Shown one piece after another: positions 16,393 through 53,399 of a stretch of 64,000 nt of DNA. Each line of letters starts with the position of its first letter. The stretch's first letter is position 1. The position numbers and the translations under genes are program-made. The notes beneath the pieces were generated by a model, which was not told the DNA's origin, did no database searches, and saw nothing but the letters and a program-made list of their open reading frames with translations. The stretch is from Myxococcales bacterium (GTDB taxonomy: Bacteria; Myxococcota_A; Polyangia; Palsa-1104; JAEUJZ01): assembly GCA_016794505.1 (NCBI GenBank), contig JAEUJZ010000023.1:130550-194549 (forward strand), in the 5' to 3' direction.

Positions 16393-16857
16393 TCAGGGTT
16401 CTTTCAGGAACGACAGCAGGCGCAGGCGCACCGGTTCGGGAAGCTGTTCAAAGCGTACGCCCGTGGCCCGCACGGTTGAGCCATCGGGCGCGGCTCGTTC
16501 AAAGGCCACTTCGCCCGCGACTTCCAGCACGTCGCCATCGTTGGGAAGCTGAAAGGCCAGGCGCAGCGGCGTGTGCTGCGGCAGCACGGGATCCGCGGCG
16601 TCGCAGCGACGCCACAGGAGCATTCCACCCAGCCCCAGATCGGAAGACTGCGCCAGATGAAGCTCGGCGGGATGTTCCGGCGTGGCCAGGATCTCTTGCC
16701 GGACCGCCACCGACAGAGGCTGGCGCGGCGATCGGCGCCGATCGGCTCCGCGCGTTCGCCGATCGCTGCTGCGTCGCTCGTGGCCAAGGCCATGGCTCGA
16801 CGAGGAAGCTCGCTCTGACAGATCCCGCGGGGGCGGCGAAGGAGTCATGTAGGCCAT
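16393..16857 (-). CDS. PilZ-domain protein
   Basis: RRSPRQP and DLGLGGM motifs are present. A start at MAYMT is preferred. Confidence 0.55.
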   Translation of the reverse strand: MAYMTPSPPPRDLSERASSSSHGLGHERRSSDRRTRGADRRRSPRQPLSVAVRQEILATPEHPAELHLAQSSDLGLGGMLLWRRCDAADPVLPQHTPLRLAFQLPNDGDVLEVAGEVAFERAAPDGSTVRATGVRFEQLPEPVRLRLLSFLKEP

Positions 16858-16906
16858 GGTAGGACATTCGGCGCGGCGAGCCAATTCCTTCTTCGCTTCG
16901 CCGGCT

Positions 16907-23783: not shown

Positions 23784-26700
23784 TTATAAGCGAGCGACGT
23801 TGTCATCGCCTTGTCGCTTGATGCCAATGCGCAGAAGTCCCTTTGCTGGTTCCAGCGTCGCGCCCGTCGGAGCAAAGCGCGCCGCATACTCCGCGACCTT
23901 CTTTTTTACTTCTTCGATCTGCCGCGCCAGCGACTCGTCTTGTTGCTTGCGCTCTTCAAGCTGCTTCTGCTTCAGCTGCAAAAGCTGCAAGCGTTTCTCT
24001 TCGATCTTTAGCTGCAGCTCGTTCTTTTTCTTGGCGATGTCTTCCAGTCGCTCTTCATGCAGCTTCAAGCTGTGGGCATATGTCTTGACGCGAATCTTGA
24101 TCGAGCCGCCCGGCTTGTTCGCGTCGATGTCGTGCAGCGCCGAATACGGGGTGGCGCTGGTGCCGATCACCGAATCGATCAGGCCATAGGTCGGCGCGTC
24201 GTGACCGCACTTGAACGACGACAAGTCGAGCACGACGACGTTCGGATGTCGCGCGGCAAACTTCGCGGCCCACACCTTCTGCACGCTGTTTGCTGAATAG
24301 TTCTCGGGCCACACATCGTTGACTTCGAGCGGCCCGTCGATGAGGCCCTTGTCGATGTCTTCTTTGTAAAAGCGATACAGCCAGCGCGGATCCTTGGGGA
24401 TCGAGCGCATCGACACGATCGGATAGCCCAGAGCCTGGAACTCTTCGAGCACGCCGTGGTTCAGGCCGGGGTCGCTGTGATACGGGCGACCGATCAGCAT
24501 CACCGCGACGCGATTTTCTTCCTCGACGACTTCCAGAATCGCTTTGCCGCGCTCTTGGATTTCTTTGTCAAAGACATCCATCGCGCGCATGCCTTGCTCG
24601 ACGGCGTAATCGTTCTCGTCTTCGGTGACATCGAGCAGCGGACCGAACGTCTCAAACAGCACGCGGCGAAGCAGCGCCGGCTCAACAAAGGTCAGCGCCG
24701 GGTCGACGTACTTGATGCCGCGCGTCGCGAAGAAGTCGACCTCTTTGGTGAAGGCCGCCTTCATGACCTCGGGCGCCCCCGCGACGATCGGACACGACGC
24801 TGTGTCCATCACCTTGTGCAAACCCGGCGGAATGTGCGTGATGCAGGGGAAGAAGATCGCCGACAGCTTTTTCTTTTCGCTGTGGTGATGGAACAGCAGG
24901 TTGTGGATGTGCGCTTGCGCCACTTTCGACGGATAGCAGGGATCGATCGACCCGTACTTGCCGCCCTCTTGCCACATCTCTTCGCTGGTGTCGTCGGAAA
25001 ACACGACGTTCTGGCGCTGGATGCCGAGCGTCTCTAGATACGTGCGAAGGAAGGGGGCGATGGTCCAGATGTTGAGGACCTTGGGAATGCCGATGCGCGT
25101 GCTGGCGCGCTTCTTTGCCGACGCGTCGCTGCTGCGCTGAAACAGGCGCCGAATCGGCACTCGCTTGACGCCCCCAAGCAGCGTCTTTTTCACCTCGATG
25201 TCGTCGATCATCGAGTCGGCGGTGGGCATCGGCGGCGGATCGTAAAAGTGACGGAACAGCTGCTTGGACTCGTAATCGACCAAGTTGGGAAACTGCTTCA
25301 TCAGCTTCTTGCGCGCCTTGGTCAAATCCAGCATCGCTTCTTCGGACTCGACGGTGCCCTTCTCGCACGAGAAGCCGGCGATGTAACGGCTGGTGTCGCC
25401 GTCGGGTGTCTCGGTGTCGATGAAGGTGCGAGCGCAGTTGTTCGGGCAGAAGTGGCAGCGCGTCGACTCGTCGTTTTTCGACGTGTATTTCAGGTCGATG
25501 GCGGCGTCGATGCCGATGAAGGTCGACTGCCCGCGGCGCTTGACGACGCGCAGCGTCTCCATAGCCGCCCCGATGGCGCCAGCCTCGCCCGTGTGCGGAT
25601 GGACATAGACCTCGCAGCCTGGCACGCGATCTTTGATGTAATCGACCTGCGCTTTGACCGCGGCCAGGTTGTGCTGCGTGCCACCCTGCAGAACGAACTT
25701 GCGACCCAGGCTGGCCATGCGCGGGATCTGCACGACGTACTGCCACACGTTCTTCGGCAGCACCTGCGCCAAGCCCGACAAGAGCTCTTCTTTCGAATAG
25801 CCTTCCTTCTGGAAGTTGACGCGGTCGCTGTCGAGGAACACGGCGCAGCCATAGCTGAACTTCGGCGATAGATCGGCATCAAACGCCACGTCCGCGTACT
25901 TGGTGATCGGCACGCCAAACTGATCGGCCATGGCCTGCAGCAGCATGCCGTTTCCCGCCGAGCACTGATTCGACAGACGGAAGTTCTTGATGTCGCCGTT
26001 TTCCATGAACAGGACCTTGATGTCCTGTCCACCGATGTCGCAGATGACATCGACATCGCCGAAGAAATGGACGGCCGACATCATGTGCGCGACCGTCTCG
26101 ACGATGTTCACGTCCGACTTGACCGACTTTTCCAGCACGTCCGCGGCATAGCCCGTCGCGCCAAAGCCCATAAGCTGCAGCGTCGCGCCCTGCTCGGTGA
26201 CATAGCTCTTGATGCGAGCCAGGATCTCCTTGGTATCAGCGATCGGGTTGCCTTTCGAGAGCTGATATTCCTTGGTCAAGATCTCGGCTGTGTCGTAGTC
26301 GATGAGCACGGCCTTGCTGCTCGTCGATCCGCCGTCCATGCCGATGACGGCGCGCACGATCTGACCGGGTTCAAGTGGCTTCTTCTCGAACCGAGGAATC
26401 TTGTACTGCTGACGGAACTCCTCTAGCTCATCGCGCTTTTCCTCGACGGCCTTGGCGCGCAGCAGCGGTGGGCCCGCGGTGTCACCCAGGCGCGCTTTGC
26501 GGCCGTGCAGGATGAACTCGGACAGGCCCTCGCTGCCTTTGTAACGACCGATGTCTTTGGCTTCGTACGTGCCGTACATCACAGCGCCGTACGCGGCGTA
26601 GTACTGCGCGTTGTTGGGGACGAGGATCAGCTCTTCGATGGCGACGTCACGCGGATAGTCAAAGCCGCGATCGCGCCAGGTCTCGGGGATGCGCTTGCGC

Positions 26701-27404
26701 CAGCAGTCGCGCAGAAACGGCAGATACGTGTTCGGCCCGCCGAGCAAGAGCACCTTGGGCTTGAGCGTATTGCCGCGCGTCAGCACCGACAGGTTCTGCA
26801 TGACGATGGCATCGGCCAGCGAGTTCATGATCTCGATCGATGGGATGCCCGACTTCACCAAGTTGACGATGTCGGTCTCGGCGAAGACACCACACTTGGC
26901 CGCGACGTGATGCAGCTTGCTGTCGTCGAACGCGATCTTGACGACTTCTTCGTTGGGCAGGCCGACCTTGAGCACGCACTTGTCGATGGTGGCGCCCGTC
27001 CCGCTGGCGCACTTGTCGTTCATCGACGTCGAAGCCTGCTTGTCGCCGGTCTTGTCGTTCTTCTTGAAGATGATGATCTTGGCGTCCTGCCCGCCTAGCT
27101 CGCACACCGAAAGGACATCGGGATGCAACGTCTCGACGGCCAGCGTGACGGCGTTGACCTCTTGCACGAACTTGGCGCCGATGTGCGGCACGATCGGCGA
27201 TGCGCCCGAGCCGGTCATAAAGATGCGCGCGGCATCCTGCGGCAGACGGGGAAAGTCGGCGGCGATGCGCTGCAAAAAGTCGAGCACGAACTCGGCCTGC
27301 TTGGTCTGGTGCCGCAGGTAGTCGCTCCACAAGATCTGCTTGCTCTGCGGGTCGACCACGACCGCCTTGACCGTCGTCGAGCCGACATCGATGCCGATCA
27401 TCAC
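23784..27404 (-). CDS. Fusion of two BadF/BadG/BcrA/BcrD-type (HgdC-like) activase ATPase domains with 2-hydroxyglutaryl-CoA dehydratase D-component-like domains
   Basis: There are two actin-fold ATPase N-termini (MIGIDVGSTTVKAVVVD and VIGMDGGSTSSKAVLID) and a Cys pattern CHFCPNNC. The start could be as far upstream as 27557. Confidence 0.6.
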   Translation of the reverse strand: MMIGIDVGSTTVKAVVVDPQSKQILWSDYLRHQTKQAEFVLDFLQRIAADFPRLPQDAARIFMTGSGASPIVPHIGAKFVQEVNAVTLAVETLHPDVLSVCELGGQDAKIIIFKKNDKTGDKQASTSMNDKCASGTGATIDKCVLKVGLPNEEVVKIAFDDSKLHHVAAKCGVFAETDIVNLVKSGIPSIEIMNSLADAIVMQNLSVLTRGNTLKPKVLLLGGPNTYLPFLRDCWRKRIPETWRDRGFDYPRDVAIEELILVPNNAQYYAAYGAVMYGTYEAKDIGRYKGSEGLSEFILHGRKARLGDTAGPPLLRAKAVEEKRDELEEFRQQYKIPRFEKKPLEPGQIVRAVIGMDGGSTSSKAVLIDYDTAEILTKEYQLSKGNPIADTKEILARIKSYVTEQGATLQLMGFGATGYAADVLEKSVKSDVNIVETVAHMMSAVHFFGDVDVICDIGGQDIKVLFMENGDIKNFRLSNQCSAGNGMLLQAMADQFGVPITKYADVAFDADLSPKFSYGCAVFLDSDRVNFQKEGYSKEELLSGLAQVLPKNVWQYVVQIPRMASLGRKFVLQGGTQHNLAAVKAQVDYIKDRVPGCEVYVHPHTGEAGAIGAAMETLRVVKRRGQSTFIGIDAAIDLKYTSKNDESTRCHFCPNNCARTFIDTETPDGDTSRYIAGFSCEKGTVESEEAMLDLTKARKKLMKQFPNLVDYESKQLFRHFYDPPPMPTADSMIDDIEVKKTLLGGVKRVPIRRLFQRSSDASAKKRASTRIGIPKVLNIWTIAPFLRTYLETLGIQRQNVVFSDDTSEEMWQEGGKYGSIDPCYPSKVAQAHIHNLLFHHHSEKKKLSAIFFPCITHIPPGLHKVMDTASCPIVAGAPEVMKAAFTKEVDFFATRGIKYVDPALTFVEPALLRRVLFETFGPLLDVTEDENDYAVEQGMRAMDVFDKEIQERGKAILEVVEEENRVAVMLIGRPYHSDPGLNHGVLEEFQALGYPIVSMRSIPKDPRWLYRFYKEDIDKGLIDGPLEVNDVWPENYSANSVQKVWAAKFAARHPNVVVLDLSSFKCGHDAPTYGLIDSVIGTSATPYSALHDIDANKPGGSIKIRVKTYAHSLKLHEERLEDIAKKKNELQLKIEEKRLQLLQLKQKQLEERKQQDESLARQIEEVKKKVAEYAARFAPTGATLEPAKGLLRIGIKRQGDDNVARL

Positions 27405-27847
27405 CGGCTCTTTGCGATCCCGACACTCTGGCGAGACGAACAAGTTCATTCCCGTGACTCCGTTCTTGACGAACCAGCACCGCAGCGAGGGGCAGCGGGG
27501 ATGCAATGAACAAACGCTAGACTGACGGTTCAGTCTATGGGGACACACTACGGGCACCGCGCGTTGGGGTCAACAGAAAATCTAGGCCACCTGCTGCGTG
27601 CGTATCGCCGGCTTTCCGTCGGGAACATGGCAAATGGCCGGGCCGCGCATGGCTGGGTCGGATGTCGTGCCCGTTCCGCGAGAGCTGGCTGGGTGGGTCT
27701 TCTGGCCGGGTCCGTTTGTCGATACAGTGAAACGAGGGTCCGTCTGTGGGCCGATCGCCTGAACGTGCAAAGGACAGGACGGGGGACGATGGCGGCGAAG
27801 GGGCGAGCGCCGGGCTCCCACGGGTCGTGAGGTCAGCAGAGGTTCCC

Positions 27848-29752
27848 ATGTCATCCGTCCCCAGCACCGAGCCAGGACGAAAGGTCGCCTTGGCGCCCGC
27901 CGAGCGCAGTCAGCCAAGCAGCGAGACCGAGGTCGCGACGCTCTTGCGGCGGCGCATGCGCGTTGCCTTTGCGCTCATCGTCGCCTACAGCGTCCTCAAC
28001 ATCGCTCGCGAGCTGACCCGTGGTGCCATCGACAGCGCGTACGCCCGCAGCGTGGTCGGCGGCAACATCGGACTTGGGCTGATCATGTCGGCCCTGACCT
28101 GGCTTTTGTGGAGCAAGCGCCGTCTGTCGCTGGTCCAGCTTCGCCGCATCGAGATTCTTGGCATCGCTCTCGCCGCCTTGCTGGTCTGCGTCGCGCAACA
28201 CCTTTGGTACACACACGGCCGACCCTTTCCGCCCGGCCTGTGGTCCGGCAGCGATCAGCTGCCTTGGAACCGCCACTGGTTCTATCAGCTTTCAGCGAGC
28301 GGCCCTGGCCATCACAGCATGATCTTGTCCTGGTCCGACGCCAGCTTGGTCTTGGGCTATGGCTACTGCCTGAACTGGGTGATCGGCATCTCGCTGTACG
28401 GCGTCTTCTTTCCCAATACGCTTCGTCGAGGCTGCTTCGTCATTGGCGGCATCATCGGCGCGGCACTTTTCAACCTGCTTCTGATCGCGCTGCGCAGCGA
28501 GCCCGCTGTGCGGAGCTGGTATCTGGGCCCGGTGCTTCTGCAGGTGACCGCGACCTTGGGCATTGGCGCGGTGACCGGCCTGATGGCGACGTATAAGCTG
28601 ACAGAGCTGCGCCAAGCCGTCGCCGCAGTCCGTCGCCTGGGACAGTACCGTCTGTTCGATCGGATCGGCACGGGCGGTATGGGCGAGGTCTATCGCGCGC
28701 AGCACATGTTTTTGCGTCGGCCGTGTGCCATCAAGCTGATCCGCGAAGACAGCCAAGACATCTCGCGCAGCTTGCAGCGCTTCGAGCGCGAAGTGCAGGC
28801 CACAGCCAGCCTGCGCCACCCCAACATCGTCGACGTGTACGACTATGGCCGCGCCGAAGACGGGACGTTCTATTACGTCATGGAATTTCTAGATGGCCTG
28901 TCGCTGGAACAGCTGGTGCGGCGCCATGGACCGCTTTCACCAGGGCGCACGGTGTATCTTCTGCGCCAAGTCTGCCACGCGTTGGCGGAAGCACACACCG
29001 TCGGGCTGATTCACCGTGATATCAAGCCCAGCAACCTGTTTGTCTGTTCGCGCGGTACGCAGCACGACGTGATCAAGCTCTTGGATTTTGGGCTCGTGCA
29101 GCAGAGCGATGCCGCGGCTAAGACCGGCGATGACACCCCGCCCGTCCTCTTGTCGGCGCTGCCCTCGGTCTCGCTGCCGCCTGGAATGCCGTCGCTGCCC
29201 TCGTCATTTCGCACACTGCCGGGCAGCATCTTGGGCACGCCGTCGTTCATGTCGCCTGAGCAGATTCGCGCTGCGACGTCCCTGGATGCACGCAGCGACC
29301 TATACAGCATCGGGGTGGTGGCATTTTATCTGCTGACGGGTCATCCGCCGTTTCGTGGTGCCACCAATATGGATGTCTTGGCGGCACATCTGACGACGCC
29401 TGCTCCGTCGCTGCGTACAGTTGTGTCGGATCTGCCTGCCGATTTGGATGCGGTGGTCGCTCACTGCCTGGCGAAAGAGCCAAAGGACCGCCCGGCCTCA
29501 GCCAGCGAGCTAGAGGATGCGCTGGCCAGCTGTACCTGTGCCAGCCACTGGAGCGCGCGGTCAGCGGCGGCTTGGTGGCAGCGCCACAGCAACGATTCCG
29601 CCGAGGAAGCCAAGCCCGGCGCTGCGCTGCTGCCGACAGCGACAGCCGCCGAGCAAGGCGAAACGGCCACGGCTCCCGCCATGAGTACCGATCGCGGCGA
29701 TCCCTCGGCTGCAGCCATTCCCACCGTCGAACGGCGGAACCAAACATCCTAG
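27848..29752 (+). CDS. Ser/Thr protein kinase with N-terminal polytopic (about 7 TM) sensor domain
   Basis: An SD-like GAGGT precedes the ATG. The Gly-loop is GTGGMGEV, with AIK, HRDIKPSN and DFG present. The N-terminal 250 aa are hydrophobic helices. Confidence 0.8.
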   Translation: MSSVPSTEPGRKVALAPAERSQPSSETEVATLLRRRMRVAFALIVAYSVLNIARELTRGAIDSAYARSVVGGNIGLGLIMSALTWLLWSKRRLSLVQLRRIEILGIALAALLVCVAQHLWYTHGRPFPPGLWSGSDQLPWNRHWFYQLSASGPGHHSMILSWSDASLVLGYGYCLNWVIGISLYGVFFPNTLRRGCFVIGGIIGAALFNLLLIALRSEPAVRSWYLGPVLLQVTATLGIGAVTGLMATYKLTELRQAVAAVRRLGQYRLFDRIGTGGMGEVYRAQHMFLRRPCAIKLIREDSQDISRSLQRFEREVQATASLRHPNIVDVYDYGRAEDGTFYYVMEFLDGLSLEQLVRRHGPLSPGRTVYLLRQVCHALAEAHTVGLIHRDIKPSNLFVCSRGTQHDVIKLLDFGLVQQSDAAAKTGDDTPPVLLSALPSVSLPPGMPSLPSSFRTLPGSILGTPSFMSPEQIRAATSLDARSDLYSIGVVAFYLLTGHPPFRGATNMDVLAAHLTTPAPSLRTVVSDLPADLDAVVAHCLAKEPKDRPASASELEDALASCTCASHWSARSAAAWWQRHSNDSAEEAKPGAALLPTATAAEQGETATAPAMSTDRGDPSAAAIPTVERRNQTS

Positions 29753-29927
29753 GTGACTGTTGGCGTAGTCGCCCTCCGGCGGCTGCGCAGGACGGGTCCG
29801 GCTCGGCTTACGTCCTCGCTTCCTCGGGCGCCGTACTTCCAGTACGGCTTGGTCGGTCGCTGCGGGCGCGCTCTCGCCTGACTCAGTCCTGCTTGTCCTC
29901 GTCACGGGCGATTACGCCAACAGCCTC

Positions 29928-30938
29928 CTAGCCGACGACGTGCAGGGCGCTGCGTGTACGGACCTGTTTTTCCAAGGCGACCAGTTTCTGCTGCGCCTGC
30001 GCGAGCCGTTCCGCGTTGTCCGAGAGCTCGGCTTCGGCGGAAAGGAGAAGCTGAAGCTGCTCGGTCACATGGCGCGCTTCGGTCAGCTCGGCTGCATCCA
30101 AGGCATCCTGCACTTCGACGAGCAAGCGCTCGGCAAGCTGAGCATCGGCCTGCCACGCAGCGCGAGCATGCTCGGCGGCTCGGCTCGGGCAGGCTCGGGC
30201 GGCAAGCAACAGGCGACTGGAGCGCAGCGGCCCATGCCATGTCGCTGCCGCCGCCTGCAAGGCCGCATGCTCGGCGCCCGTGGGCTGACCTGCGGCTTGG
30301 TACAGCGCAGCCAGAAGCCCCCACGCCGGCCCAGCCAGCGGATCAAGGATCACGGCCTGTTTCAGCGCCGCCAGTGCCGCGTCGACATCGCCCTCTTCGT
30401 ACGCGATCTCGGCCTGCTCGAACCAGGGCAGCGCGGCGCCGGGATCCTCGCGCTTGCCACACGCTACCCGCTTCTTGCGCACGCTCAGCTCTAGCTCGTC
30501 GTCTCCGACGAAGACATCGCGGAATTCACCGTGGCGATCCACGATCAGGGCTTCGCGGGCCAAGGTCGCATCGATGAAGGCTTCGATGTGGCTACCGACG
30601 ACAATCGGGTCCGGTGCACTCGCGTCCACAAGGGAGATGCGGCCGGATGCATCCAGCCAGAGCGCTCCGTCAGCGCAATCGCCGATATGCAGATACGAGC
30701 GCCCTTCTGGAGTGCCATCGACGGGCTGAATGCTGTCGCAGGAAAACAAGCTCTGTGCTTCGAGAAACAGCGTCACACCGTCAAACGATCGCAGAAAGTC
30801 GAGATACTCCGCCGGCAACGGCCAGGCGGCACGTTTCGTTAGAGCATCCAGCGATGTCAACGTGGCAGGTGCGCCGAGAAAATGGACAAACGCGGCATAA
30901 CGGCCAGCAGCCGCTCGCAGCGCCTCGAAGAAGGCCAT
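29928..30938 (-). CDS. SMI1/KNR4 (SUKH)-like N-domain protein with TPR-like helical C-terminus
   Basis: LPAEYLDFLRSFDGVTLF matches the SUKH-1 signature. The start is moved to MAFFEAL. Confidence 0.45.
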   Translation of the reverse strand: MAFFEALRAAAGRYAAFVHFLGAPATLTSLDALTKRAAWPLPAEYLDFLRSFDGVTLFLEAQSLFSCDSIQPVDGTPEGRSYLHIGDCADGALWLDASGRISLVDASAPDPIVVGSHIEAFIDATLAREALIVDRHGEFRDVFVGDDELELSVRKKRVACGKREDPGAALPWFEQAEIAYEEGDVDAALAALKQAVILDPLAGPAWGLLAALYQAAGQPTGAEHAALQAAAATWHGPLRSSRLLLAARACPSRAAEHARAAWQADAQLAERLLVEVQDALDAAELTEARHVTEQLQLLLSAEAELSDNAERLAQAQQKLVALEKQVRTRSALHVVG

Positions 30939-30945
30939 GTTGGGT

Positions 30946-32376
30946 TTACTTGACGGTGCAGGGGTTAGAGAGGCGGGCGCGCTTTTCAGCGTCGCGGAGC
31001 GTCTTGATCGTGCTCGCGCCCGGCTTCTGGTTGGCCGGCGCAACGCGGAAGGCATAGCACAGCACTTCTGCGCTATCGCGGTACTTCTTGGACTTGAAGT
31101 AGTCCTCGCCAGCCGCGATCAGCTTGGTGCGCAGCTTATCGGCAAACTCTTGGCGGTACGCGCTATCAGGAGACATCTGGTCGTAGATACGAACGGCCGC
31201 GGCAATGCCATCCGGCGTGCCTTTGTCTAGCTCGACGCTGCCGGCCTTGTACTTGCCTTCGTCTTCTGCGGCGCGTGCGGACTGCGCTCGCAAGCGGACC
31301 GCTTCCAGGCTGACTGGATCGATCTCAAGCGCGGCTTCTGCCGCATCTTTGGCTTTCTGCCATTCCTGCTTGTTGAATGCTTCCTTCGCGATCCGCACCT
31401 GGTTTTCGGCTTCCTGGATCTTCGCGGCGATCGCTTGCTCGACGGCGCCCTTGGGAGGACCCGAGGGAACGATCAGCTTGATGATCCAAATCAGCCAGAC
31501 CAAGGCCGTCACACCTGCAAGCCCAAGGAACGCCTTCTTTACGTTCGGCGAGATCGGCGGTCCCATCAGGTTGGCGATCGCCTGCGACGCTTTGGCTCCG
31601 CCCGATCCGCCGCTTCCGTCGAGACGGAACATCAGCTCACCAAACCGAACCGTGTCACCTGGGCCGGCCTGTGCGCTTGTAATCTTGCGCCCGTTTACGT
31701 AGGTCCCGTTGGCCGAGTTCAGATCCTCGACTTCAATCCGGCCCCCACCGATGCGTCGCATCTTTGAGTGCTTGCGCGACATCGAGGGATCGTCGAGGAC
31801 GAGGTCGTTGCCAACGCCGCGCCCGACGGTAATCTCGGCCATTCCAGGTAGATCGAAGACGCGACCGCTGTACTGGCCGCCTTCGGCAATCAGGCGAACC
31901 AAGTCGGTTGGCCCCCCCGCTGTGGGGGGCATTCCGCTCTGCGGCAAGGCGGCCCCTGGCAGCACGGCCGACGGCATCTGCGGCAACGGCTGCGGCGGCA
32001 TCATGCCTGGCATCATGGGCGGTGCAGCCATCGGTGGTGCAGCCATCGGCGGTGCGGCCATCGGCGGCGGCGCCATGCCCACCTGTTCCACGAGCAGACG
32101 GAACTCCGCGATCTCAACCCGCGTGTTCGGTGGAATGGGGGTCATCGTATTGGCAGGGATGCGAGCGCCGTTGATCACGATGCCGTTGGCGCTGCCGTCA
32201 TCGATGATCGAGACGCCGGTCGGTTCGATGCGCACCCGGCAGTGGCGACGGGAAACACTGGGCGATGCGAGGACCATCTGACGATCCTGATCGCGGCCAA
32301 TCGTAAACTCGCCCGCGTCCATTTCTTTACGCGCGAGTTCCCGTCCATCCTTATCTGTGGCGATTACTCTCCACAC
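30946..32376 (-). CDS. Double FHA-domain membrane protein (FHA - PMAAP repeat linker - FHA - TM - coiled-coil C-domain)
   Basis: Two FHA cores are present (TIGRD...SRRHCRV and TVGRG...SRKHS...NGTYVNG). A (MAAPP)3 linker is encoded by a 15-bp DNA repeat. There is one TM helix. Confidence 0.7.
   Translation of the reverse strand: MWRVIATDKDGRELARKEMDAGEFTIGRDQDRQMVLASPSVSRRHCRVRIEPTGVSIIDDGSANGIVINGARIPANTMTPIPPNTRVEIAEFRLLVEQVGMAPPPMAAPPMAAPPMAAPPMMPGMMPPQPLPQMPSAVLPGAALPQSGMPPTAGGPTDLVRLIAEGGQYSGRVFDLPGMAEITVGRGVGNDLVLDDPSMSRKHSKMRRIGGGRIEVEDLNSANGTYVNGRKITSAQAGPGDTVRFGELMFRLDGSGGSGGAKASQAIANLMGPPISPNVKKAFLGLAGVTALVWLIWIIKLIVPSGPPKGAVEQAIAAKIQEAENQVRIAKEAFNKQEWQKAKDAAEAALEIDPVSLEAVRLRAQSARAAEDEGKYKAGSVELDKGTPDGIAAAVRIYDQMSPDSAYRQEFADKLRTKLIAAGEDYFKSKKYRDSAEVLCYAFRVAPANQKPGASTIKTLRDAEKRARLSNPCTVK
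32021..32080. repeat. 15-bp imperfect tandem repeat (x4) inside the double-FHA gene, encoding PMAAP repeats
   Basis: GGTGCAGCCATCGGY units are read directly. Confidence 0.8.
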
Positions 32377-32419
32377 AGAAGCTCCACCTGACTCTCAGTT
32401 AGGGTTCCACGAAGCCTCG

Positions 32420-34699
32420 TTATCCCGCAAAGGCTGGGACGTGACCAGTGGCCACGAACTGCCCATCGCCTCCTTCTGGCTTGAAAGAGAACACCGGCAG
32501 AAGCTCGATGCCGCCTTCTTCGCTCAGAATGACTTCCGAGATCTCCATGACACGATAGGCGCCGCCAGCTGTCCGGCCCACGTGGACCGCCAAATTCAGG
32601 CTCTGCGCTAGCTCTTCGCGCAAGGCTTTGCGCGACGGGGATTCATTGGACAAGCGTGCGAGCGACTCCAGACGGCCCACCGCTTCGCGTGACGAGGCTG
32701 CGTCGGCCCCGACGACGACGCCTTGGCCTCCACAGAGAGCAGCGGCAACGTCGAGGGCTTCGGGGCCTCGGACATCGGTGATGATGAGGTGATCTGGATG
32801 CATGCGAACCGCGTGACCGATCAGACTGCGCATTTCCAAGCCGCGTCCGATCAGCCCAATCCATGCCGCATGCGTCGCCGAAAGGTCAAGCTCACTAACA
32901 GGCTCGACGGTGACAACGCGCGCACCAGCGGCTGTGGCCCCACCAAGCGCCCCCAGCATGACCCCACGGCCATAGCCAGAAACGATGAGGTTGCGGCGCT
33001 CGCGCATGCAGACTTCGAGGAATTCGGACATCGCTGCCGAGAGCACGCCTTGATTGACGAGATCTTGCAGCCGGCCACCGGTTTTGCGCGCTCGGCGCAG
33101 CACCAGCGACGGAACTCGCGCCAGTGGCGGCAAGGCTGCCTGCAACAGGGCGCCACTGTCCAGTCGAATCTCTTGGATGCCGGTGTCCAGACGGCCTCCG
33201 GCCCGCGTGACCATGCGGTGGATGGCTCGATACACGGCCGCAGGTGACGTAAAGACGCGCTCGTACAAGCTCTGCCCGCTGCCGCGATCGACGAAAATGC
33301 GATCGGGGCCCGCCACGGCAACCTCATGGACGCTCTCGTCGGCCAAGAGCTCATCGAGAGGCCCGCAGCCTGTTAGCTCAGCCAGGGCCATCTTTGCCAA
33401 GGCATCGCTTTCAAGCCCCAGGGGCAGCGGAAAGATCTTGTCTGCGATGTCGCGCGTGGCCTTGTCTAGCTTGGCCTCTGCGTCGCTGAGCTGATCGGGT
33501 GTGGCCTGGGCGAGGCCTAGCTGATCCACGGCCTTGGTGACCACCTGCGTGAGCGCTTCTATGTAGCGTCGTCGCTGTGGATCTTCGATCGCAGCAGCCA
33601 CACTGCCCACGGCGGGTCGACTTGCGGGGCCGATGGCAGGTGTCGCCGAGCGTGTTACTGGTCGACTGGCAGGTGCCACTGATGGCGTCGTCGATGGCGT
33701 CGAGCGAGCCAGCGGGGGGCGGGCCGTGGGGGGCGCGACCGGTGGCGGTACCACAGCCGGCGGTGGCGCACCAACGGGCGGAGCCGCCAAGGCCGATGAA
33801 GGCGGCGGACTCGAAGGGGGTGCCGCGATCGCCATCGGAGGCGGTGTCACTGCCACCGGAGGCGGTTGCGCTGCTGGCGGCGCGAGTGAAACCGGCGGCG
33901 GCGCCGAGGGCGGACTGATCGGCGTCAGCGATTGCAGCGTCGGAGGCGGTACCGGAACCGGGCCAGGTAGAGGGACGCTAAGCGGCGATGGAATGCGGGG
34001 CGCATCGCCGGCCATCATCGTCGCTTTGTCCGAGATCCGATCCGCCGGCATGATGGGTCGATCCAGCGACGCCATCTCTGCACTTGCACTGCCGGGGATC
34101 GGCGGCTTTGTGCTGATGCGCAGCGGTGGTGGAGGCGCTGCTGGCGGCGGCGGTGCAGAAACCGGCGGCGCTGCTGGCGGCGACGGTGGCGGGGTTGGCC
34201 GCGTCGCCCTGGCATCAGGAACAGGCGACTTTGCCGACTCATCAGGCTCATCCAGCTCGTCTTCCATGCCGGCGGCGACGTCCATCGAGGTCGGCTCGGC
34301 CCGGATGGCGGGCACCGTCGCAATCGGCGGACGCCCCCCAGGACGAGGAGGAGGCGGCGGCGGACGGCCCGCGCTCTCCAGATCGGCCGTCGAGCTCGTC
34401 GATGGCCCGGAGCCTTCCTCGATGTTCATGATGAAGTCACCGATGTAGATCTTGTCGGTGCCCTTCACCACCAGCGGCGCCGTGATCTTGCGGCCATTGA
34501 CATACGTGCCGTTGGTGCTCTTTAGGTCGACGATGATGTACTTGCCGTCTTTGAAAACGATGCGCGAGTGACGCTTGGATACGTTCCCCTTCGGGAGGAC
34601 GATGTCGTTGCCTTGCACTCGACCAATTGTGATCTCGGGTCGGTCGAACTCTAGACGCTTCGTCTCACCACCTTTTTCGGAGATCAGGATGGAGAACAT
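32420..34699 (-). CDS. FHA domain - Pro-rich linker - CpaF/TadA/VirB11-like secretion-ATPase domain with degenerate catalytic motifs (predicted pseudo-ATPase)
   Basis: The N-terminal FHA is ITIGRV...SKRHSRI...NGTYVNG. The C-terminal domain is colinear with CpaF, but Walker A reads GYGRGVML (no Lys/Thr), the Walker-B Glu reads TDVRG, and the His-box reads GADAAS. Confidence 0.65.
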   Translation of the reverse strand: MFSILISEKGGETKRLEFDRPEITIGRVQGNDIVLPKGNVSKRHSRIVFKDGKYIIVDLKSTNGTYVNGRKITAPLVVKGTDKIYIGDFIMNIEEGSGPSTSSTADLESAGRPPPPPPRPGGRPPIATVPAIRAEPTSMDVAAGMEDELDEPDESAKSPVPDARATRPTPPPSPPAAPPVSAPPPPAAPPPPLRISTKPPIPGSASAEMASLDRPIMPADRISDKATMMAGDAPRIPSPLSVPLPGPVPVPPPTLQSLTPISPPSAPPPVSLAPPAAQPPPVAVTPPPMAIAAPPSSPPPSSALAAPPVGAPPPAVVPPPVAPPTARPPLARSTPSTTPSVAPASRPVTRSATPAIGPASRPAVGSVAAAIEDPQRRRYIEALTQVVTKAVDQLGLAQATPDQLSDAEAKLDKATRDIADKIFPLPLGLESDALAKMALAELTGCGPLDELLADESVHEVAVAGPDRIFVDRGSGQSLYERVFTSPAAVYRAIHRMVTRAGGRLDTGIQEIRLDSGALLQAALPPLARVPSLVLRRARKTGGRLQDLVNQGVLSAAMSEFLEVCMRERRNLIVSGYGRGVMLGALGGATAAGARVVTVEPVSELDLSATHAAWIGLIGRGLEMRSLIGHAVRMHPDHLIITDVRGPEALDVAAALCGGQGVVVGADAASSREAVGRLESLARLSNESPSRKALREELAQSLNLAVHVGRTAGGAYRVMEISEVILSEEGGIELLPVFSFKPEGGDGQFVATGHVPAFAG

Positions 34700-35026
34700 A
34701 TCTGGTCATGCTCCTTTGCGTGCCATATGGGCACGGTTGCCGTCGGCAAAAACCAGGCTGTGATTGCGGCCTACCTTACGATGCCCGTCGATTTAGGGTC
34801 AAGCGCTTTGGCAGAGGACCAGCGTGGCTGGGCGTGCTTGGGCGCTGCAGACCCTGACAATCTATTTTTTCGACGATATCAAAAAGCTGACTCGGCGGGA
34901 ACAGTTAGTTACGAAGCGGGCAGGTCCCGATCGCTCGACAGCCCGCCTGAGAGTGAGCTACCAAGCCAACCGATGGGTATCAAATTTGTAATTCAAAAAA
35001 CTAATTTATTTGTATAGTTACTCGGT

Positions 35027-35794
35027 ATGTCCAGATCAACTCGCTCGCTTAGGGGGCCAGAGGGCGGTCTCTGGCTGCATCGTCGGGATGTTCTTTGGGC
35101 CATTCCACTCGCTCTGCTTCTGCCTCGCCTTGCCGAGGCTGGGCCGCGTTACTACCTGCGCTTGCGTGGTGTCGAGATGGCTCCGACGGCGCTGGTAGGG
35201 GCGGAGTCCGTCCATGCGGCTCCCGCCACGTCACCCGCAGCAGGAAGCTTGCCCGACGGCGGAGCTGCGCCTTCTGTGGCGGCTGCACCAGCGCGCAGCC
35301 CGGCGGATGCCGTCATCGAGATGGCGCGTGAGAACCTGGTCACAGAGCTTCGCAAGCGCCCTGAAGTTGTTCTAGAGCTCGACGGAGTGCCGGCAGATGC
35401 CCCGCCCGCGCGCATCAAGGAAGAGCTGCAGCGACGGGGACTACGCGGCTACGAGGTGACTCTTCGCCTGCTCAAGGTCGAACGAGCTCTGCGACCGGCT
35501 CCGACGGGACGACGCTTCCGTCTGCTGGAACAGAGCGTGAAGCTCTCTTTGGTCGGCACGCTGTACCCTGGTGACCCCCAGCTAGCGCTGGGAGGCGATG
35601 GAGAATCCGCTGTGCAGATCGAAGTCGGTGCGCAGATCAGCCAGAATCAAGAACGTGATGCGCTGACGGAAGCCGTCAAGGACGCCGTCAGTCAGGCCGT
35701 TGCACAAGGGCTGCGCAAGCTGAGCGCAGGGCCGACCAAGCCACCGAAGGACCCCCCACGGCGTCGTGTCCCAGCCAAGCCACCGGCAAAGTAG
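35027..35794 (+). CDS. Hypothetical exported protein (Tat-like RRDVLWAIPLALLL signal)
   Basis: It has an N-terminal signal peptide and high GC3. No domain was recognised. Confidence 0.45.
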   Translation: MSRSTRSLRGPEGGLWLHRRDVLWAIPLALLLPRLAEAGPRYYLRLRGVEMAPTALVGAESVHAAPATSPAAGSLPDGGAAPSVAAAPARSPADAVIEMARENLVTELRKRPEVVLELDGVPADAPPARIKEELQRRGLRGYEVTLRLLKVERALRPAPTGRRFRLLEQSVKLSLVGTLYPGDPQLALGGDGESAVQIEVGAQISQNQERDALTEAVKDAVSQAVAQGLRKLSAGPTKPPKDPPRRRVPAKPPAK

Positions 35795-35826
35795 CCCACG
35801 TCGCCGCAGCGGCATAGAATGCCGGC

Positions 35827-36372
35827 ATGTCACGTGTGGATGCTAGCTCTGCCGAGTGCTTGGTCTTTACCTTCAAGGAAGGGTTGCTTGCCGCTGTCGC
35901 ACACGACCTGAAGCTGCGAGTGACGCGGTTTACGGTCGATGTGACCGACGGCGGGGTAAGCGCCGAGTTCGCTGCGGACTCGCTGCGCGTCATGCACGCG
36001 ATGCGCGACGGACGAGAGGATGCCGCGGCGCTTTCCGATGCCGATCGCCGCAAGATCGAACGGAACATCGTCGAAGAGGTCTTGGCCGCAGGGCGCTACC
36101 CGACGATACGCTTTAGCAGCACACGCGTCGTGAAGAACCCCGTCGGTTTCGAGGTCAGCGGCGAGCTGGCTCTGCATGGCCAGCGTCGTCCCTTGCGAGT
36201 GGACGTGAAAGCGGTTGGGTCGCGGTTCGTTGCCGAAGTTGTGCTGCATCAACCGGACTTCGGCATCAAGCCCTACACGGCCATGCTCGGGGCCTTGCGC
36301 ATTCGCCCCGATGTGCGCATTGAGCTCTCGGTTCCGAGTGCGGTATCTGAGAACGCCGAGCAGAAGTCCTAA
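35827..36372 (+). CDS. YceI-like family protein
   Basis: Length is about 180 aa with an ELALHGQRRPL motif, consistent with the YceI lipid/polyisoprenoid-binding family. Confidence 0.55.
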   Translation: MSRVDASSAECLVFTFKEGLLAAVAHDLKLRVTRFTVDVTDGGVSAEFAADSLRVMHAMRDGREDAAALSDADRRKIERNIVEEVLAAGRYPTIRFSSTRVVKNPVGFEVSGELALHGQRRPLRVDVKAVGSRFVAEVVLHQPDFGIKPYTAMLGALRIRPDVRIELSVPSAVSENAEQKS

Positions 36373-36414
36373 GCTAGCGAGAGGAAGAAGCTAGCGAGAG
36401 GAAGAAGCTAGCGA
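36373..36414. repeat. 17-bp tandem repeat (GCTAGCGAGAGGAAGAA x2.4) containing three palindromic GCTAGC sites, between convergent genes
   Basis: Read directly. It overlaps the stop codon of the ECF sigma gene. It could form a hairpin as a bidirectional terminator. Confidence 0.8.
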
Positions 36415-36956
36415 TCGCCGCGATCTTTGAGCGTCGTGCGCAGCATGCGGTGAGCCCGCAGACGACGGGTGCGTACGCCGCCGATGGTGATACCCAGCGT
36501 GGCAGCAACCACCTCGATCGGCTTTTCAGCAAGATCGCACTGCTCGACGACAGCGCGATAGCGCTCGGGTAGCTTTTCGATGGCCCAGCGCAGAAGCTCG
36601 GCGTTCTGTGCCTCTTCAAGCTGCGCGTGCGGTTGCGTAGAGCTACGCGCGCCGTGCAGCCAGCAGGAATCTCCGGGCAAGCTAGTGAGTGCGCGCTGGG
36701 TGCGATCTCCGGCGCGACGCTGACGACGCAACGACATCAGGACGGCGTTGGCGCTGACACGATACAGCCATGTACCCAGCTGGGAATCGCCGCGGAAGCA
36801 GTCGATGTGATGCAGCGCCGCAAGGAGTGCATCTTGCGTCGCGTCCTCGGCACCTTCAGAGCCGCGCAGCATGCGGCGAGCTTGGCGCAGCATGACGGGC
36901 CGGCTATCTGCGATCGCTTCGGCGAGAGTTTTCTTGGCGGGAGTCATCGTCGGCAT
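36408..36956 (-). CDS. ECF (sigma-70 group IV) RNA polymerase sigma factor
   Basis: Region 2 and region 4 motifs are present (DATQDALLAALHHIDCFRG...TWLYRVSANAV; LPERYRAVVEQCDLAEKPIEVVAATLGITIGGVRTR). The start is chosen at the ATG preceded by the AAGGAG SD. Confidence 0.75.
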   Translation of the reverse strand: MPTMTPAKKTLAEAIADSRPVMLRQARRMLRGSEGAEDATQDALLAALHHIDCFRGDSQLGTWLYRVSANAVLMSLRRQRRAGDRTQRALTSLPGDSCWLHGARSSTQPHAQLEEAQNAELLRWAIEKLPERYRAVVEQCDLAEKPIEVVAATLGITIGGVRTRRLRAHRMLRTTLKDRGDR

Positions 36957-37070
36957 GGGGGCTGGCTCCTTTGGCATCGTGAGCAGGTGAGATGGCCGTT
37001 TGTTGGCGGACCGCGACGGCAGCGTGCGAACCGTTTTTTGCCTGACTTGCAGCGTCAAACAAACAATGAA

Positions 37071-37108
37071 CAAACCATATACAATCCATCATGGTTTGTC
37101 AAACGTTT
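37071..37108. promoter_or_regulatory. Operator-like inverted repeats in the divergent ECF-sigma / CarH-like intergenic region: ACAAACCAT-N12-ATGGTTTGT and the 10-bp palindrome CAAACGTTTG
   Basis: Read directly. TTGACA (37175-37180) and TTGACC (37189-37194) hexamers lie downstream, facing the regulator gene. Confidence 0.45.
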
Positions 37109-37209
37109 GATCCACCCACGAAGCACCCCGTCGACAAAGTGATCTTTTGCATAGACCAATCTTTATACAAAGCATTGACAAAGCCGTCTTGACCGCGCAA
37201 GCTGAGTGT

Positions 37210-38124
37210 GTGAGCAAGTATCGGATTCGCACGGTCTCGCAGATGACTGGCTTGTCACCCGCCCTAATCCGCGCTTGGGAGGCGCGCTATCGCTTGGTGG
37301 TGCCTGAGAGGACGACAGCTGGCTATCGTCTGTATTCCGACGAAGATGTCGCGCTTCTGGTCGGCGCCCAGAGGCTGGTGCAGCGCGGCATCGCACCGAT
37401 GGAGGTCGCTCAGCTACCGCGCACGCACTTGCGCGAAGCAGGCGGCACCGCGATCCATGAACCTCCGGCGCCGGTTTCGGGTCTGACGAGCTACGGCGAT
37501 CACGTCGAGAGACTCGTGGCGGCCTTCGCCCGCTTTGACCAGCACCAGGCCGAGAGCCTGCTTTCGCGTCCGCTTTCGATGATGCCGCCCCTCGAAGCGT
37601 GCCGACAGATCCTGGTCCCGCTGATGCGTGAGCTAGGAGATCGCTGGCATCGCGGTGAAATCTCCGTCGCGGTCGAGCACTTTGGCACCAGCCTGGTGCG
37701 AGCCAAGCTGGTGATGCTCTTAGAGACGCTGCGTCACCGCAACAGCAACAAGACCGTTCTGTGCGCCTGTCCCCCAGGCGACCTGCACGAAGGCGGGCTC
37801 TTGCTGTTCGCGATCGAGGCGGTGGAGCAGGGCTGGCAGCCCGTCTATCTGGGGCCAGACTTGCCGATCGCTGCACTGGCGGCAGCAGCGCGACAGGCGG
37901 CCCCACTTCTCGTCGCGCTTTCGATCGTGCTGCGCCGCGAGCCGAGCGAGCTACAGCGTTTGCTGAGCAGCCTGCACGAGGCACTGGGCGACCGCTGTCC
38001 GATCCTTTTGGGTGGCTCTGGAATTGCCGGGCAGGAAGAGCTCATCGTGCGCTGTGGCTGCCGACTGCTGCCGCCATCGGGCAAACTCGATGAGCTACTG
38101 AGCGCCTCGCGCCATCGTCGGTAA
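37210..38124 (+). CDS. MerR-family transcriptional regulator with C-terminal cobalamin (B12)-binding domain (CarH/LitR-like photoregulator candidate)
   Basis: The N-terminal MerR HTH is YRIRTVSQMTGLSPALIRAWEARY. The C-terminal domain has the B12-binding DxHxxG motif (GDLHEGG) and GG..G loops. The ORF-track TTG start is in an AT-rich non-coding leader, so a GTG start at 37210 is preferred. Confidence 0.6.
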   Translation: MSKYRIRTVSQMTGLSPALIRAWEARYRLVVPERTTAGYRLYSDEDVALLVGAQRLVQRGIAPMEVAQLPRTHLREAGGTAIHEPPAPVSGLTSYGDHVERLVAAFARFDQHQAESLLSRPLSMMPPLEACRQILVPLMRELGDRWHRGEISVAVEHFGTSLVRAKLVMLLETLRHRNSNKTVLCACPPGDLHEGGLLLFAIEAVEQGWQPVYLGPDLPIAALAAAARQAAPLLVALSIVLRREPSELQRLLSSLHEALGDRCPILLGGSGIAGQEELIVRCGCRLLPPSGKLDELLSASRHRR

Positions 38125-38170: not shown

Positions 38171-39184
38171 CTATCGCAGAAGCGCGAAGGCCAAGAGGCC
38201 CGCTGCAGCCAGCAGGAACACGCCAAGCAAGACCCACGGCAGAATTGGCTTGGACACTGGCTTTAGGGCTGCATTCGACGCGGCCAACGCAGGGGGCGGA
38301 GTCATGGCCGCCGCTCCGCTCAGCGACGGTGTTGTCGCAGGTGCGTCGGGGCGAACAGGCGTCAGCTTCGGCTGTGAGCTGGCTGCTACTCCATGGGTCG
38401 ACAGCTTGCCTGGCCCTGGACTCGCTTTCGGCGGTGTGGTTACGCCGTTGCCCTGAAACTGGCTGGCTGGCTGGGGCGCGCTACTTGTCCCATTCGATCC
38501 CGGCGGAGTCTTCTGCGTCGGCGTCCGATTCACGGGCGACACCGACGAAGGCGGCTGGCTCGTTGGCGTTCCACTTGGCGCAGTCGAGGCCGGGGGCAGG
38601 CTTCCCCCTGTGACCCGTGGCTTCATCTGCCGCCCTGCATCACCAGCCGCTGCGATCTCGCGCAGCGTGTTTTCGAAGCTGGGATCGCCATAGATCTTCT
38701 TTGCGTTGTTGAGGAAGGCAAAGAAGGACTCCTCCATCTCGTCGAAGTCCATGACACCGTCGCACTCGTCGCAGCGACAGGTGGGAGCCTTCGAGATCGG
38801 CGCGCTCTTCGCCAGGTCGCGCGCCTCTAGGCGCAGCAGCTTTTCCTTCTTACAGCGCGGACAGAAGTACGGAGCGTAGAAGCTCTTGACGATGCCGTTG
38901 GCTGTGAAGTTGTTCACCAGATTGATCTGCGAAACGATCGCAGGCGAACAGTTCACAAAGACCAGACGGGCGCCGTTCTTCTCGATACGGCCGAGCCAGT
39001 TCACCCAGTCGCGCACGCCGCACGAGTTGATGCGCTCGATCTCGCCCAGGTCCAGCACCATTGGGCCGTTACCAAGCTGACTCTCAAGGGGCACAAGCTC
39101 GTTGTCCTCATCGATCACACCCGCGATCTTCAGGGTACAGACCCCATCGCGACTGTTCACTTCTGAGCGGAACTTAGAGCCCAT
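38171..39184 (-). CDS. STAS-domain (anti-sigma-factor-antagonist fold) protein with Cys4 zinc-ribbon, Pro/Ser/Thr-rich linker and C-terminal TM anchor
   Basis: A STAS-like N-domain (VCTLKIAGVIDEDN...LDLGEIERINSCGV) is followed by CPRCKK...CRCDECDG. A hydrophobic tail forms the C-terminus. The start is MGSKF. Confidence 0.5.
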   Translation of the reverse strand: MGSKFRSEVNSRDGVCTLKIAGVIDEDNELVPLESQLGNGPMVLDLGEIERINSCGVRDWVNWLGRIEKNGARLVFVNCSPAIVSQINLVNNFTANGIVKSFYAPYFCPRCKKEKLLRLEARDLAKSAPISKAPTCRCDECDGVMDFDEMEESFFAFLNNAKKIYGDPSFENTLREIAAAGDAGRQMKPRVTGGSLPPASTAPSGTPTSQPPSSVSPVNRTPTQKTPPGSNGTSSAPQPASQFQGNGVTTPPKASPGPGKLSTHGVAASSQPKLTPVRPDAPATTPSLSGAAAMTPPPALAASNAALKPVSKPILPWVLLGVFLLAAAGLLAFALLR

Positions 39185-39265
39185 GCCTTGCCTGGTCCCT
39201 CTACCTTGAGCGTCGGAGGACAACACCGACTGCCAGGAGGAAGAATAGCCTTTTGTTTGCCGTGA

Positions 39266-53235: not shown

Positions 53236-53399
53236 GGCGCCGCGCAGCCTCCCGATCAGCGATTGCGGTCGCGGCGGGAAGGCGCAGCACATCGAGCCGC
53301 CGCGGCTGGCTGGTGCTGTATGCGGTATGTATCTGTTTTACACATAGCGTAGGGGGAACACCCCGAAGTCAAGGCAAGGCACTATGGAACGAGATTGTA

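Follow-up and report, generated by a model that had tools for sequence, protein, structure and literature searches.

Can an ATPase of the PilT/VirB11 family be kept by selection after losing the residues that make it a motor? The question is raised by a minus-strand gene in a 64,000-nucleotide stretch of contig JAEUJZ010000023.1 (hereafter the window) from a Myxococcales bacterium (assembly GCA_016794505.1). Its 759-amino-acid product carries an FHA domain, a disordered linker and a domain resembling CpaF, the motor of Tad pili, in which the motifs for ATP hydrolysis are replaced (hereafter pseudo-CpaF). An initial annotation, made from the window alone, took this protein for an inactive secretion-ATPase fold recruited as a phospho-dependent scaffold. 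The inactive motifs and the intact FHA signature stood up to analysis; the scaffolding role is a matter of interpretation. Our preferred reading, to which we give slightly better than an even chance, is that pseudo-CpaF and the adjoining gene are a paralogous, motor-dead derivative of the kilF-kilD-type pair found in the myxobacterial Tad-like (Kil) machines, and that the derivative acts as a scaffold recruited by phosphothreonine (pThr).

The C-terminal part of the protein is a genuine CpaF/VirB11-superfamily fold, with a three-helix bundle (3HB), an N-terminal domain (NTD) and a C-terminal ATPase domain (CAD). The Pfam profile T2SSE (PF00437) matched residues 443-703 with 56.3 bits, against a cut-off of 24.9, and a phmmer search of the PDB was headed by the Caulobacter CpaF structures 8rkd, 8rjf and 9e24 (E 3e-33), followed by archaeal GspE, FlaI and VirB11. 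A Foldseek search with an AlphaFold2 (AF2) model built from 29 sequences (mean pLDDT 89.5) likewise placed CpaF first (9e24, 8rjf and 8rkd; E 4e-30, about 400 aligned columns), before FlaI, archaeal GspE and VirB11. The objection that the domain might be unrelated to this superfamily therefore falls. No NCBIfam equivalog model reached its cut-off: the C-terminal domain gave only sub-threshold matches to TadA, TrbB and VirB11, with TIGR03819 scoring 155 against a cut-off of 373, and the other sub-threshold matches were to the generic FHA families FhaB, TagH, GltG and OdhI.

Residue roles and numbering were taken from the Caulobacter CpaF cryo-EM study (PMC12019362), and motif states were read from HMMER alignments against CpaF structures, from MAFFT and from hmmalign, all in agreement with the AF2 model. 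These methods bore out the initial annotation in finding the P-loop, the Walker B glutamate and the His box replaced. The Walker A sequence ISGGTGSGKTT of CpaF corresponds to VSG---YGRGVM, with a three-residue deletion and the substitutions K287→R and T288→G; as modelled, the strand LIVSG would lead through a two-residue turn into a helix in place of the eight-residue P-loop (local pLDDT >90). The Walker B motif GEVRG is changed to TDVRG (E357→D), and the His box TGHDG...LHANS to GGQGV...ADAAS (H374→Q and H382→D). The NTD arginine finger is also lost (R223→L), D309 of the Asp box is replaced by proline, with the equivalents of E308 and E312 retained, and the extended pore loop between β9 and α9 is six residues shorter than in CpaF. 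By contrast with these losses, R217 and the inter-chain finger R347 are kept, and D215 is conservatively replaced by glutamate. The Walker B change proves nothing alone, because the same substitution occurs in an otherwise canonical alphaproteobacterial CpaF (locus L023); it is the combination of changes that counts. Judged from these alignments, the nucleotide-binding and catalytic motifs of the domain are destroyed. Without its phosphate-binding loop and catalytic residues, and with only part of the pore loop left, pseudo-CpaF most likely neither binds ATP canonically nor drives a platform protein. The protein has the fold and profile of the superfamily but lacks its Walker A motif, Walker B glutamate, His box and genomic context, and we therefore file it as a pseudo-enzyme derivative rather than as a CpaF.

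Two trivial explanations, an intact P-loop misplaced by the alignment and a pseudogene drifting after the loss of a pilus system, can be given next to no credence. The three aligners and the AF2 model agree on the deletion, and the aligned CpaF-like domain showed neither a shifted intact GKT/S motif nor any GK[ST] at or around the Walker A position. As for drift, a survey of other genomes of the kind suggested by the initial annotation, in which one genome per GTDB species was scanned, gave 22 loci in metagenome-assembled genomes (MAGs) of Polyangia or 'Myxococcales', largely from bioreactor or sludge-type assemblies, together with a Kofleriaceae locus (L024) and the ordinary CpaF of L023. One of these loci, L001, is from what is effectively the window's own species (96-99% protein identity). 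The degenerate motifs were nearly unchanged in about 21 species-level Polyangia MAGs: SG-YGR[GL] was invariant in the 20 clade loci covering the Walker A region, and the near-invariant motifs of the clade were SG-YGR[GL].., VEPVSE[LI]DL, I[TS]DVRGPEA and G[GS]QGVVV[GS]xDA[AS]S. The 759-codon open reading frame (ORF) was intact in every locus holding the whole gene. The dN/dS ratios, estimated by the Nei-Gojobori method for pairs with unsaturated dS, were in most pairs as low for the dead ATPase domain (0.01-0.04) as for the FHA domain (0.00-0.02), and about 5-10 times higher for the linker (0.11-0.21). The most divergent pair (L006/L019) had higher values throughout (0.11 for the ATPase domain, 0.13 for FHA and 0.75 for the linker). 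Given the intact ORFs and these ratios, the dead domain is not decaying but is maintained by strong purifying selection, and both the misaligned P-loop and the decaying pseudogene are refuted. In public databases, family members are automatically annotated as 'pilus assembly protein CpaF', 'TadA', 'ATPase, T2SS/T4P/T4SS family' or 'FHA domain-containing protein'. With CpaF, TadA and T2SS-type names of this kind, Tad pili would be wrongly predicted in these genomes.

The best-conserved part of pseudo-CpaF is its FHA domain (residues 23-87, E 4e-17), which has kept 77-85% identity in nearly all members of the degenerate clade, whereas identity in the ATPase-like part falls to 36-48%. The residues of the pThr-binding signature, G25-R26, S41-x-x-H44 and N63-G64, are invariant among orthologues in the conservation map. 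The same GR / SxxH / NG signature is kept, and is invariant among orthologues, in all three FHA domains of the gene cluster, all of which are thus predicted to bind pThr. The linker, put at 250 residues by the initial annotation, extends over 268 residues. In this otherwise fast-evolving region, two motifs containing threonine are conserved across the window clade: EPTSMD (nt 34280-34297, minus strand), a pTxxD-type sequence, and DRISDKATMMA (nt 34010-34042, minus strand). Both are candidate phospho-acceptor or FHA-docking sites, and neither was seen in the linkers of the sister clade described below.

The initial annotation considered an inactive secretion-ATPase fold recruited as a phospho-dependent scaffold to be an undescribed architecture, a claim that proved too broad. 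An FHA domain, an intrinsically disordered region (IDR) and 3HB-NTD-CAD follow one another in identical order in the class III CpaFs, which the accessible part of their description presents as orthologous Tad-pilus motors, mostly from Betaproteobacteria, with no mention there of catalytic degeneration (PMC12019362). KilF, of the Kil contact-killing machine of Myxococcus xanthus, is built in the same way (PMC8460266). Only the dead version of the FHA-IDR-CpaF architecture is therefore new. A literature search, with most subscription-journal papers outside its reach, found no description of a catalytically dead PilT/VirB11-family member under strong selection, of the graded series or of the four-gene, pilus-free module reported below.

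Synteny was examined by tblastn of the window proteins against all loci and from gene calls, also for loci of 69-74% GC. All the ORFs named in the initial annotation are present in the ORF listing of the window at the positions it gave (Table 1). It had grouped three minus-strand genes with a neighbouring kinase; the three genes held together, whereas the kinase did not, and a divergently transcribed gene for an exported protein, as well as the kilF-kilD paralogy, had been missed. Wherever the contig permits, the order is exported-protein gene, FHA-pseudo-CpaF, 2xFHA protein and SUKH-TPR protein, including in L022, where the proteins are 42-44% identical to those of the window. The same core was recovered from the gene calls of four further metagenomic relatives (P0010, P0011, P0210 and P0213). 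All four genes are kept together down to 44% identity, and the core minus the 2xFHA gene, which is absent from L024, down to 36-39% (L024). The conserved unit thus consists of four genes, without the kinase. The gaps between the three minus-strand genes are 43 bp and then 7 bp. Scans for promoters (sigma-70 consensus) and terminators over positions 27400-35900 gave nothing exceeding the shuffled background, and for the divergent intergenic region they were uninformative.

Table 1. Coordinates of the module, its neighbouring kinase gene and the parts of pseudo-CpaF
Feature	Position in window	Strand	Description
Kinase gene	27848..29752 (alternative start 27746)	+	Convergent Hanks-type Ser/Thr kinase, N-terminal multi-transmembrane
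SUKH-TPR gene	29928..30938	-	336 aa, cytoplasmic; SUKH (SMI1/KNR4) + TPR
KilD-like 2xFHA-transmembrane gene	30946..32376	-	476 aa membrane protein
FHA-IDR-pseudo-CpaF gene	32420..34699	-	759 aa
CpaF-like 3HB + NTD + degenerate CAD	32423..33595	-	Residues 369-759
Walker B and His-box remnants, ITDVRGPEA...GGQGVVVGADAAS	32693..32782	-	E357→D, H374→Q, H382→D
Walker A remnant SGYGRGVM	32957..32980	-	Residues 574-581
Pro/Ala-rich disordered linker	33596..34399	-	Residues 101-368, 268 aa
FHA domain of pseudo-CpaF	34439..34633	-	Pfam E 4e-17; pThr-binding signature intact
Divergent intergenic region	34700..35026	.	327 bp; presumed to hold promoters
Exported-protein gene	35027..35794	+	255 aa, divergently transcribed; beyond the coordinates of the initial annotation

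The kinase has a strong Pkinase match (E 4e-44), N-terminal transmembrane segments, the HRD and DFG motifs and the AIK lysine, and its gene converges on the cluster at a distance of 175 bp. Such a membrane sensor with intact catalytic motifs might be the specific writer of the marks that the FHA-bearing products of the three genes would read, and the Thr motifs conserved in the linker would suit this arrangement, as would the sister-clade loci in which a Ser/Thr kinase and a PP2C phosphatase lie within about 10 kb. We consider such a kinase-centred module quite unlikely. By tblastn, L001 and L005 are the only loci besides the window where the kinase adjoins the cluster; at that position it is missing from all the other clade loci, in which kinase matches are only 28-35% identical, at varying distances, or absent. 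Myxobacterial genomes encode very many Hanks kinases, so that the adjacency cannot be told from chance. On synteny, the kinase is rejected as a core member and is a lineage-specific neighbour. In the sister clade, in which the Walker A lysine is replaced by arginine, one flank carries a gene for a VWA protein (P0010, P0210, P0213 and L026 loci), and the other carries two unannotated genes of about 400-430 aa, followed by genes for an FHA (or DZR zinc-ribbon plus FHA) protein, a PP2C phosphatase, an FHA-trypsin protein and a Ser/Thr kinase. These FHA, PP2C, FHA-trypsin and kinase neighbours make a general link to Ser/Thr phospho-signalling plausible, with no specific kinase tied to the module. 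The pairing of FHA and VWA proteins in this clade recalls the ArnA/ArnB regulators of the archaellum (PMC4858521).

The partner proteins are distributed over several compartments. The 2xFHA protein has two canonical FHA domains (E 1.6e-34), one transmembrane segment (residues 285-303), a Pro/Met-rich linker and a helical, weakly TPR-like extracytoplasmic domain of about 170 aa, with which a PDB sequence search returned only designed or generic TPR proteins. Two cysteines, C440 and C473, are invariant in this C-terminal domain and fit an extracytoplasmic location; the module therefore spans the cytoplasm, the inner membrane and the periplasm. The SUKH-TPR protein itself has TPRs and only a weak SUKH match (E 2.5e-3, 18.9 bits against a cut-off of 25.4), but the assignment is firm because 13 of its 14 orthologues match PF09346 (best E 2.3e-8). 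Its gene, which starts directly downstream of the stop codon of the 2xFHA gene, is syntenic in every locus reaching far enough. The exported protein, without any match in Pfam or NCBIfam, completes the module as its fourth conserved member and is periplasmic. It has 31 homologues, all without a name, which share a signal peptide with RR and an A-x-A site, the conserved strand PRYY[IL]RLR, an Ala/Pro spacer that varies, and a core of about 135 aa, after which comes a basic KPPKDPPRRR tail. In the window protein, the signal peptide is predicted to be of the twin-arginine type with cleavage at AEA|G. The core has a CsgG/LptE/PelC/PqiC-like fold. An assignment of the four core proteins to a known anti-phage defence system was rejected, as the PADLOC models gave zero matches for any of them; the kinase produced generic kinase-domain matches only.

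The closest active relatives indicate where the module came from. P0012 (locus L025) is 36% identical to pseudo-CpaF, has canonical motifs and lies within a Tad locus, with genes for a prepilin peptidase (A24), Flp-sized ORFs, RcpC and a secretin on one side, two T2SSF platform genes on the other and a Ser/Thr kinase nearby. This complete Tad locus also contains a second, shorter T2SSE-family gene (L025 14918-16051, plus strand; 377 aa), a few genes downstream of P0012. P0048 (locus L027) likewise has canonical motifs, and 73% of the residues in its FHA domain are identical to the window protein's; P0048 lies between genes for a secretin and a 700-aa 2xFHA protein. In M. xanthus, the order is kilC-kilF-kilD, with KilF combining FHA and ATPase domains and KilD combining FHA domains and TPRs (PMC8460266, supplementary file 18), and the L027 order is equal to it. 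Residues 1-455 of the window 2xFHA protein align with the KilD-like protein of L027 (E 3e-27); the match takes in the N-terminal MWRxIA sequence, the two FHA domains and, beyond them, the hydrophobic segment and helical region. On the basis of this gene order and alignment, the likeness being judged through the metagenomic locus L027 rather than from M. xanthus sequences, pseudo-CpaF and the 2xFHA protein are a paralogue of a kilF-kilD-type pair, split from the rest of the machine. The hydrophobic segment of the L027 protein (gene at L027 12144-14246, plus strand; residues about 262-284) aligns with the transmembrane helix of the window protein. KilD is classed as a cytoplasmic multidomain protein in M. 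xanthus (PMC8460266), so that it may be worth re-examining the topology of KilD-type proteins.

The separation from the machine is seen in the gene content of the loci. No Tad, pilin, type IV pilus, platform, secretin or secretion genes were found in the whole window or beside the distant members L022 and L024. KilF and KilD (MXAN_3107-3108) come from the same phylum and share the FHA-linker-CpaF architecture, and KilF, too, is directly followed by an FHA/TPR multidomain protein (PMC8460266). KilF, however, is an active and essential motor with canonical motifs, whereas the window protein has no P-loop, catalytic glutamate or His box and has lost one arginine finger and part of the pore loop. 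Beside kilF lie genes for a secretin and a prepilin peptidase, and a second cluster supplies the platform and pilin genes, whereas the window module has none of these nearby and, unlike Kil, has gained the SUKH-TPR and exported CsgG/LptE-fold proteins.

This ancestry raises the alternative that pseudo-CpaF regulates an unlinked, active Tad or Kil motor. It could be a 'poison' or 'prozyme' subunit in mixed hexamers with the real KilF or CpaF, or else its FHA domain could compete with that of the motor for one pThr docking site and so gate the assembly of the pilus or killing machine. The regulation of an active partner by a dead paralogue is a known theme, the subunit-interface positions (R217, R347 and the D215 equivalent) are retained, the adjoining gene encodes a KilD homologue and, at 73% identity, the FHA domains of pseudo-CpaF and of the active KilF-like P0048 may read the same ligand. 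We nevertheless regard such a role as unlikely: the module was never beside Tad or Kil genes in roughly 25 loci extending past the gene pair, it has its own exported and SUKH partners, and the CAD is only 34-37% identical to active relatives and has a shortened pore loop, which makes mixed rings and platform engagement less likely.

The dead forms are not restricted to the window clade. An exhaustive HMMER search with the family profile covered 1.84 billion representatives, and motifs were then extracted from the best 150, of which 46 were degenerate: 22 had the Walker A Lys→Arg change, seven had neither lysine nor arginine there, and 17 kept the lysine but had lost H382, the column from which the 'His box lost' category was counted. 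Most of the 46 are 600-770 aa long and carry an FHA fusion. A neighbour-joining tree placed the degenerate forms in one block with nested states. The outer members (e.g., L024) have GSGK[ST], the Walker B E→D change, a lost His box and a full-length pore loop; the inner members have GSGR[ST], have lost R223 and have a pore loop of 9-10 residues instead of 18; and the window clade adds the P-loop deletion and the Asp-box D→P substitution. The window protein is the most degenerate tip of a large, graded clade of FHA-pseudo-CpaF proteins. Common descent of the degenerate forms is supported by the SUKH-TPR and exported-protein neighbours shared by L022, L024 and the P0010-type loci. The series amounts to a natural dissection of the order of motif loss: starting from an active Kil-type motor, the His box would have been lost first, the Walker A Lys→Arg change, the loss of the arginine finger and the shortening of the pore loop would have followed, and deletion of the P-loop would have come last. 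It is conceivable, although we consider it doubtful, that this previously unrecognised Polyangia radiation preserves the steps by which a Tad/Kil pilus motor became a ring-forming hub of pThr signalling that no longer depends on pili and that, together with its KilD-like, SUKH-TPR and CsgG/LptE-fold partners, would constitute a new kind of trans-envelope signalling complex.

The degenerate pocket could instead be a switch that senses a nucleotide, a second messenger or phosphate without hydrolysis, which would make pseudo-CpaF a sensor rather than a passive scaffold. In P-loop NTPases, replacement of the Walker A lysine by arginine typically spares binding and blocks hydrolysis, and in the sister clade this is the only change in a Walker A motif of full length (GSGRS/T). 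Even in the window clade, the remnants of the pocket are themselves invariant: the Walker A arginine within G-x-G-R, the two Asp-box glutamates (E599/E603), D642-V-R-G-P-E-A and R632. The collapse of the window-clade P-loop to a two-residue turn, the replacement of the Mg2+-binding threonine by glycine and the loss of R223, on the other hand, make canonical nucleotide binding implausible, and conservation of the remnants may merely reflect core packing. We therefore judge a ligand-binding switch to be decidedly improbable.

Recruitment of pseudo-CpaF as a scaffold is favoured because the strongest constraint is on the FHA domain and the fold and subunit-packing residues have been kept, whereas phosphate binding, catalysis and part of the pore loop have been lost. 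Several points weigh against it. The invariance of the pocket residues suggests that the pocket may still bind some ligand, so that a 'pure scaffold' would be an oversimplification; the window clade has neither a phosphatase nor a dedicated kinase as a conserved companion; long-branch attraction could affect the neighbour-joining grouping of the degenerate forms; and every member of the family is from an uncultured bacterium, a search for cultured or named carriers having turned up metagenomic or MAG sequences only. If the scaffold reading is correct, pseudo-CpaF would be recruited through phosphothreonine to the cytoplasmic face of the membrane as a probably oligomeric, non-motor scaffold. 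There it would work with three partners: the KilD-like 2xFHA-transmembrane-TPR protein, which reaches into the periplasm, the cytoplasmic SUKH-TPR adaptor and the exported CsgG/LptE-fold protein of the periplasm. The degree of phosphorylation would depend on Hanks-type kinases, of which the neighbouring membrane kinase may be one, and on PP2C phosphatases. We infer the oligomerisation, the contacts between FHA domains and pThr, the complex across the inner membrane and the control of a cellular process.

The closest functional parallels to such a scaffold come from other systems. In the Fha1/TagH-PpkA-PppA pathway of type VI secretion, an FHA scaffold recruited by a membrane Hanks kinase switches on the assembly of an envelope machine, and the authors of the Kil study cite this threonine-phosphorylation pathway as an analogy (PMC8460266). 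The window differs in that it has no type VI secretion genes, the fusion partner of its FHA domain is a dead secretion ATPase and not a TagH C-domain, and neither a kinase nor a phosphatase is a conserved neighbour. Mycobacterial FhaA is reportedly a non-enzymatic scaffold of the cell-envelope machinery, in which a globular domain, a Pro/Ala-rich disordered linker of about 300 aa and an FHA domain read the pThr marks of Hanks kinases at the membrane. This likeness is functional only: FhaA belongs to another phylum, its domain order is reversed, its globular domain is unrelated and there is no homology beyond FHA. Precedents for catalytically impaired NTPase folds that have been kept in secretion or filament machines for a structural or regulatory role are RvhB4-II of Rickettsiales, which has no Walker motifs, and archaeal ArlH/FlaH, the ATP-binding but non-hydrolysing partner of ArlI. 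These proteins belong to other NTPase families (VirB4 and KaiC/RecA-like, respectively), are encoded within the locus of their machine and have no FHA fusion.

PilT/VirB11-family ATPases have been regarded as obligate motors, whether of pili, of type II or type IV secretion systems or of archaella, and a conserved, strongly selected member that is most likely incapable of motor activity would show that the fold can be reused non-catalytically. As the FHA domain is best conserved and common to the active and dead forms, its ligand is probably the key regulatory input for both. These findings bear on an open question concerning the Kil system of Myxococcus, the role of the many FHA proteins around KilF.

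Other features of the window lie outside the module. Adjoining the kinase gene is a gene for a 1257-aa fusion (23784-27557, minus strand) with two BcrAD/BadFG ATPase domains and DUF2229, of the CoA-enzyme activase type, which is 97-99% identical in L001 and L005. On the other side of the module, positions 35827-38124 encode a YceI-like protein, an ECF sigma factor (36408-37073, minus strand) and a CarH-type regulator with MerR and B12-binding domains (37147-38124, plus strand); this set looks like light- or B12-responsive regulation, and its synteny with the module is confined to the closest genomes (L001-L005). Further along, a STAS-domain gene (38171-39226) has directly downstream of it a single ORF of 2419 aa (39266-46525, minus strand) consisting almost entirely of TPR-type repeats. 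Two stand-alone PilZ-domain proteins (2979-3596 and 16393-16884, both minus strand) have no pilus genes alongside, and a second Ser/Thr kinase, with a PEGA domain (3-2510, plus strand), is cut by the window edge. A 398-aa ORF (52096-53292, minus strand) has a weak, sub-threshold match to Fam20C (Golgi casein kinase-like; E 6e-5), and its neighbour (53642-55366, plus strand) has a strong IgGFc_binding domain (E 3e-63). Finally, a 612-aa protein (58918-60756, minus strand) combines HARE-HTH and Mrr_cat restriction-endonuclease-like domains, separated by a long central region with no domain match.

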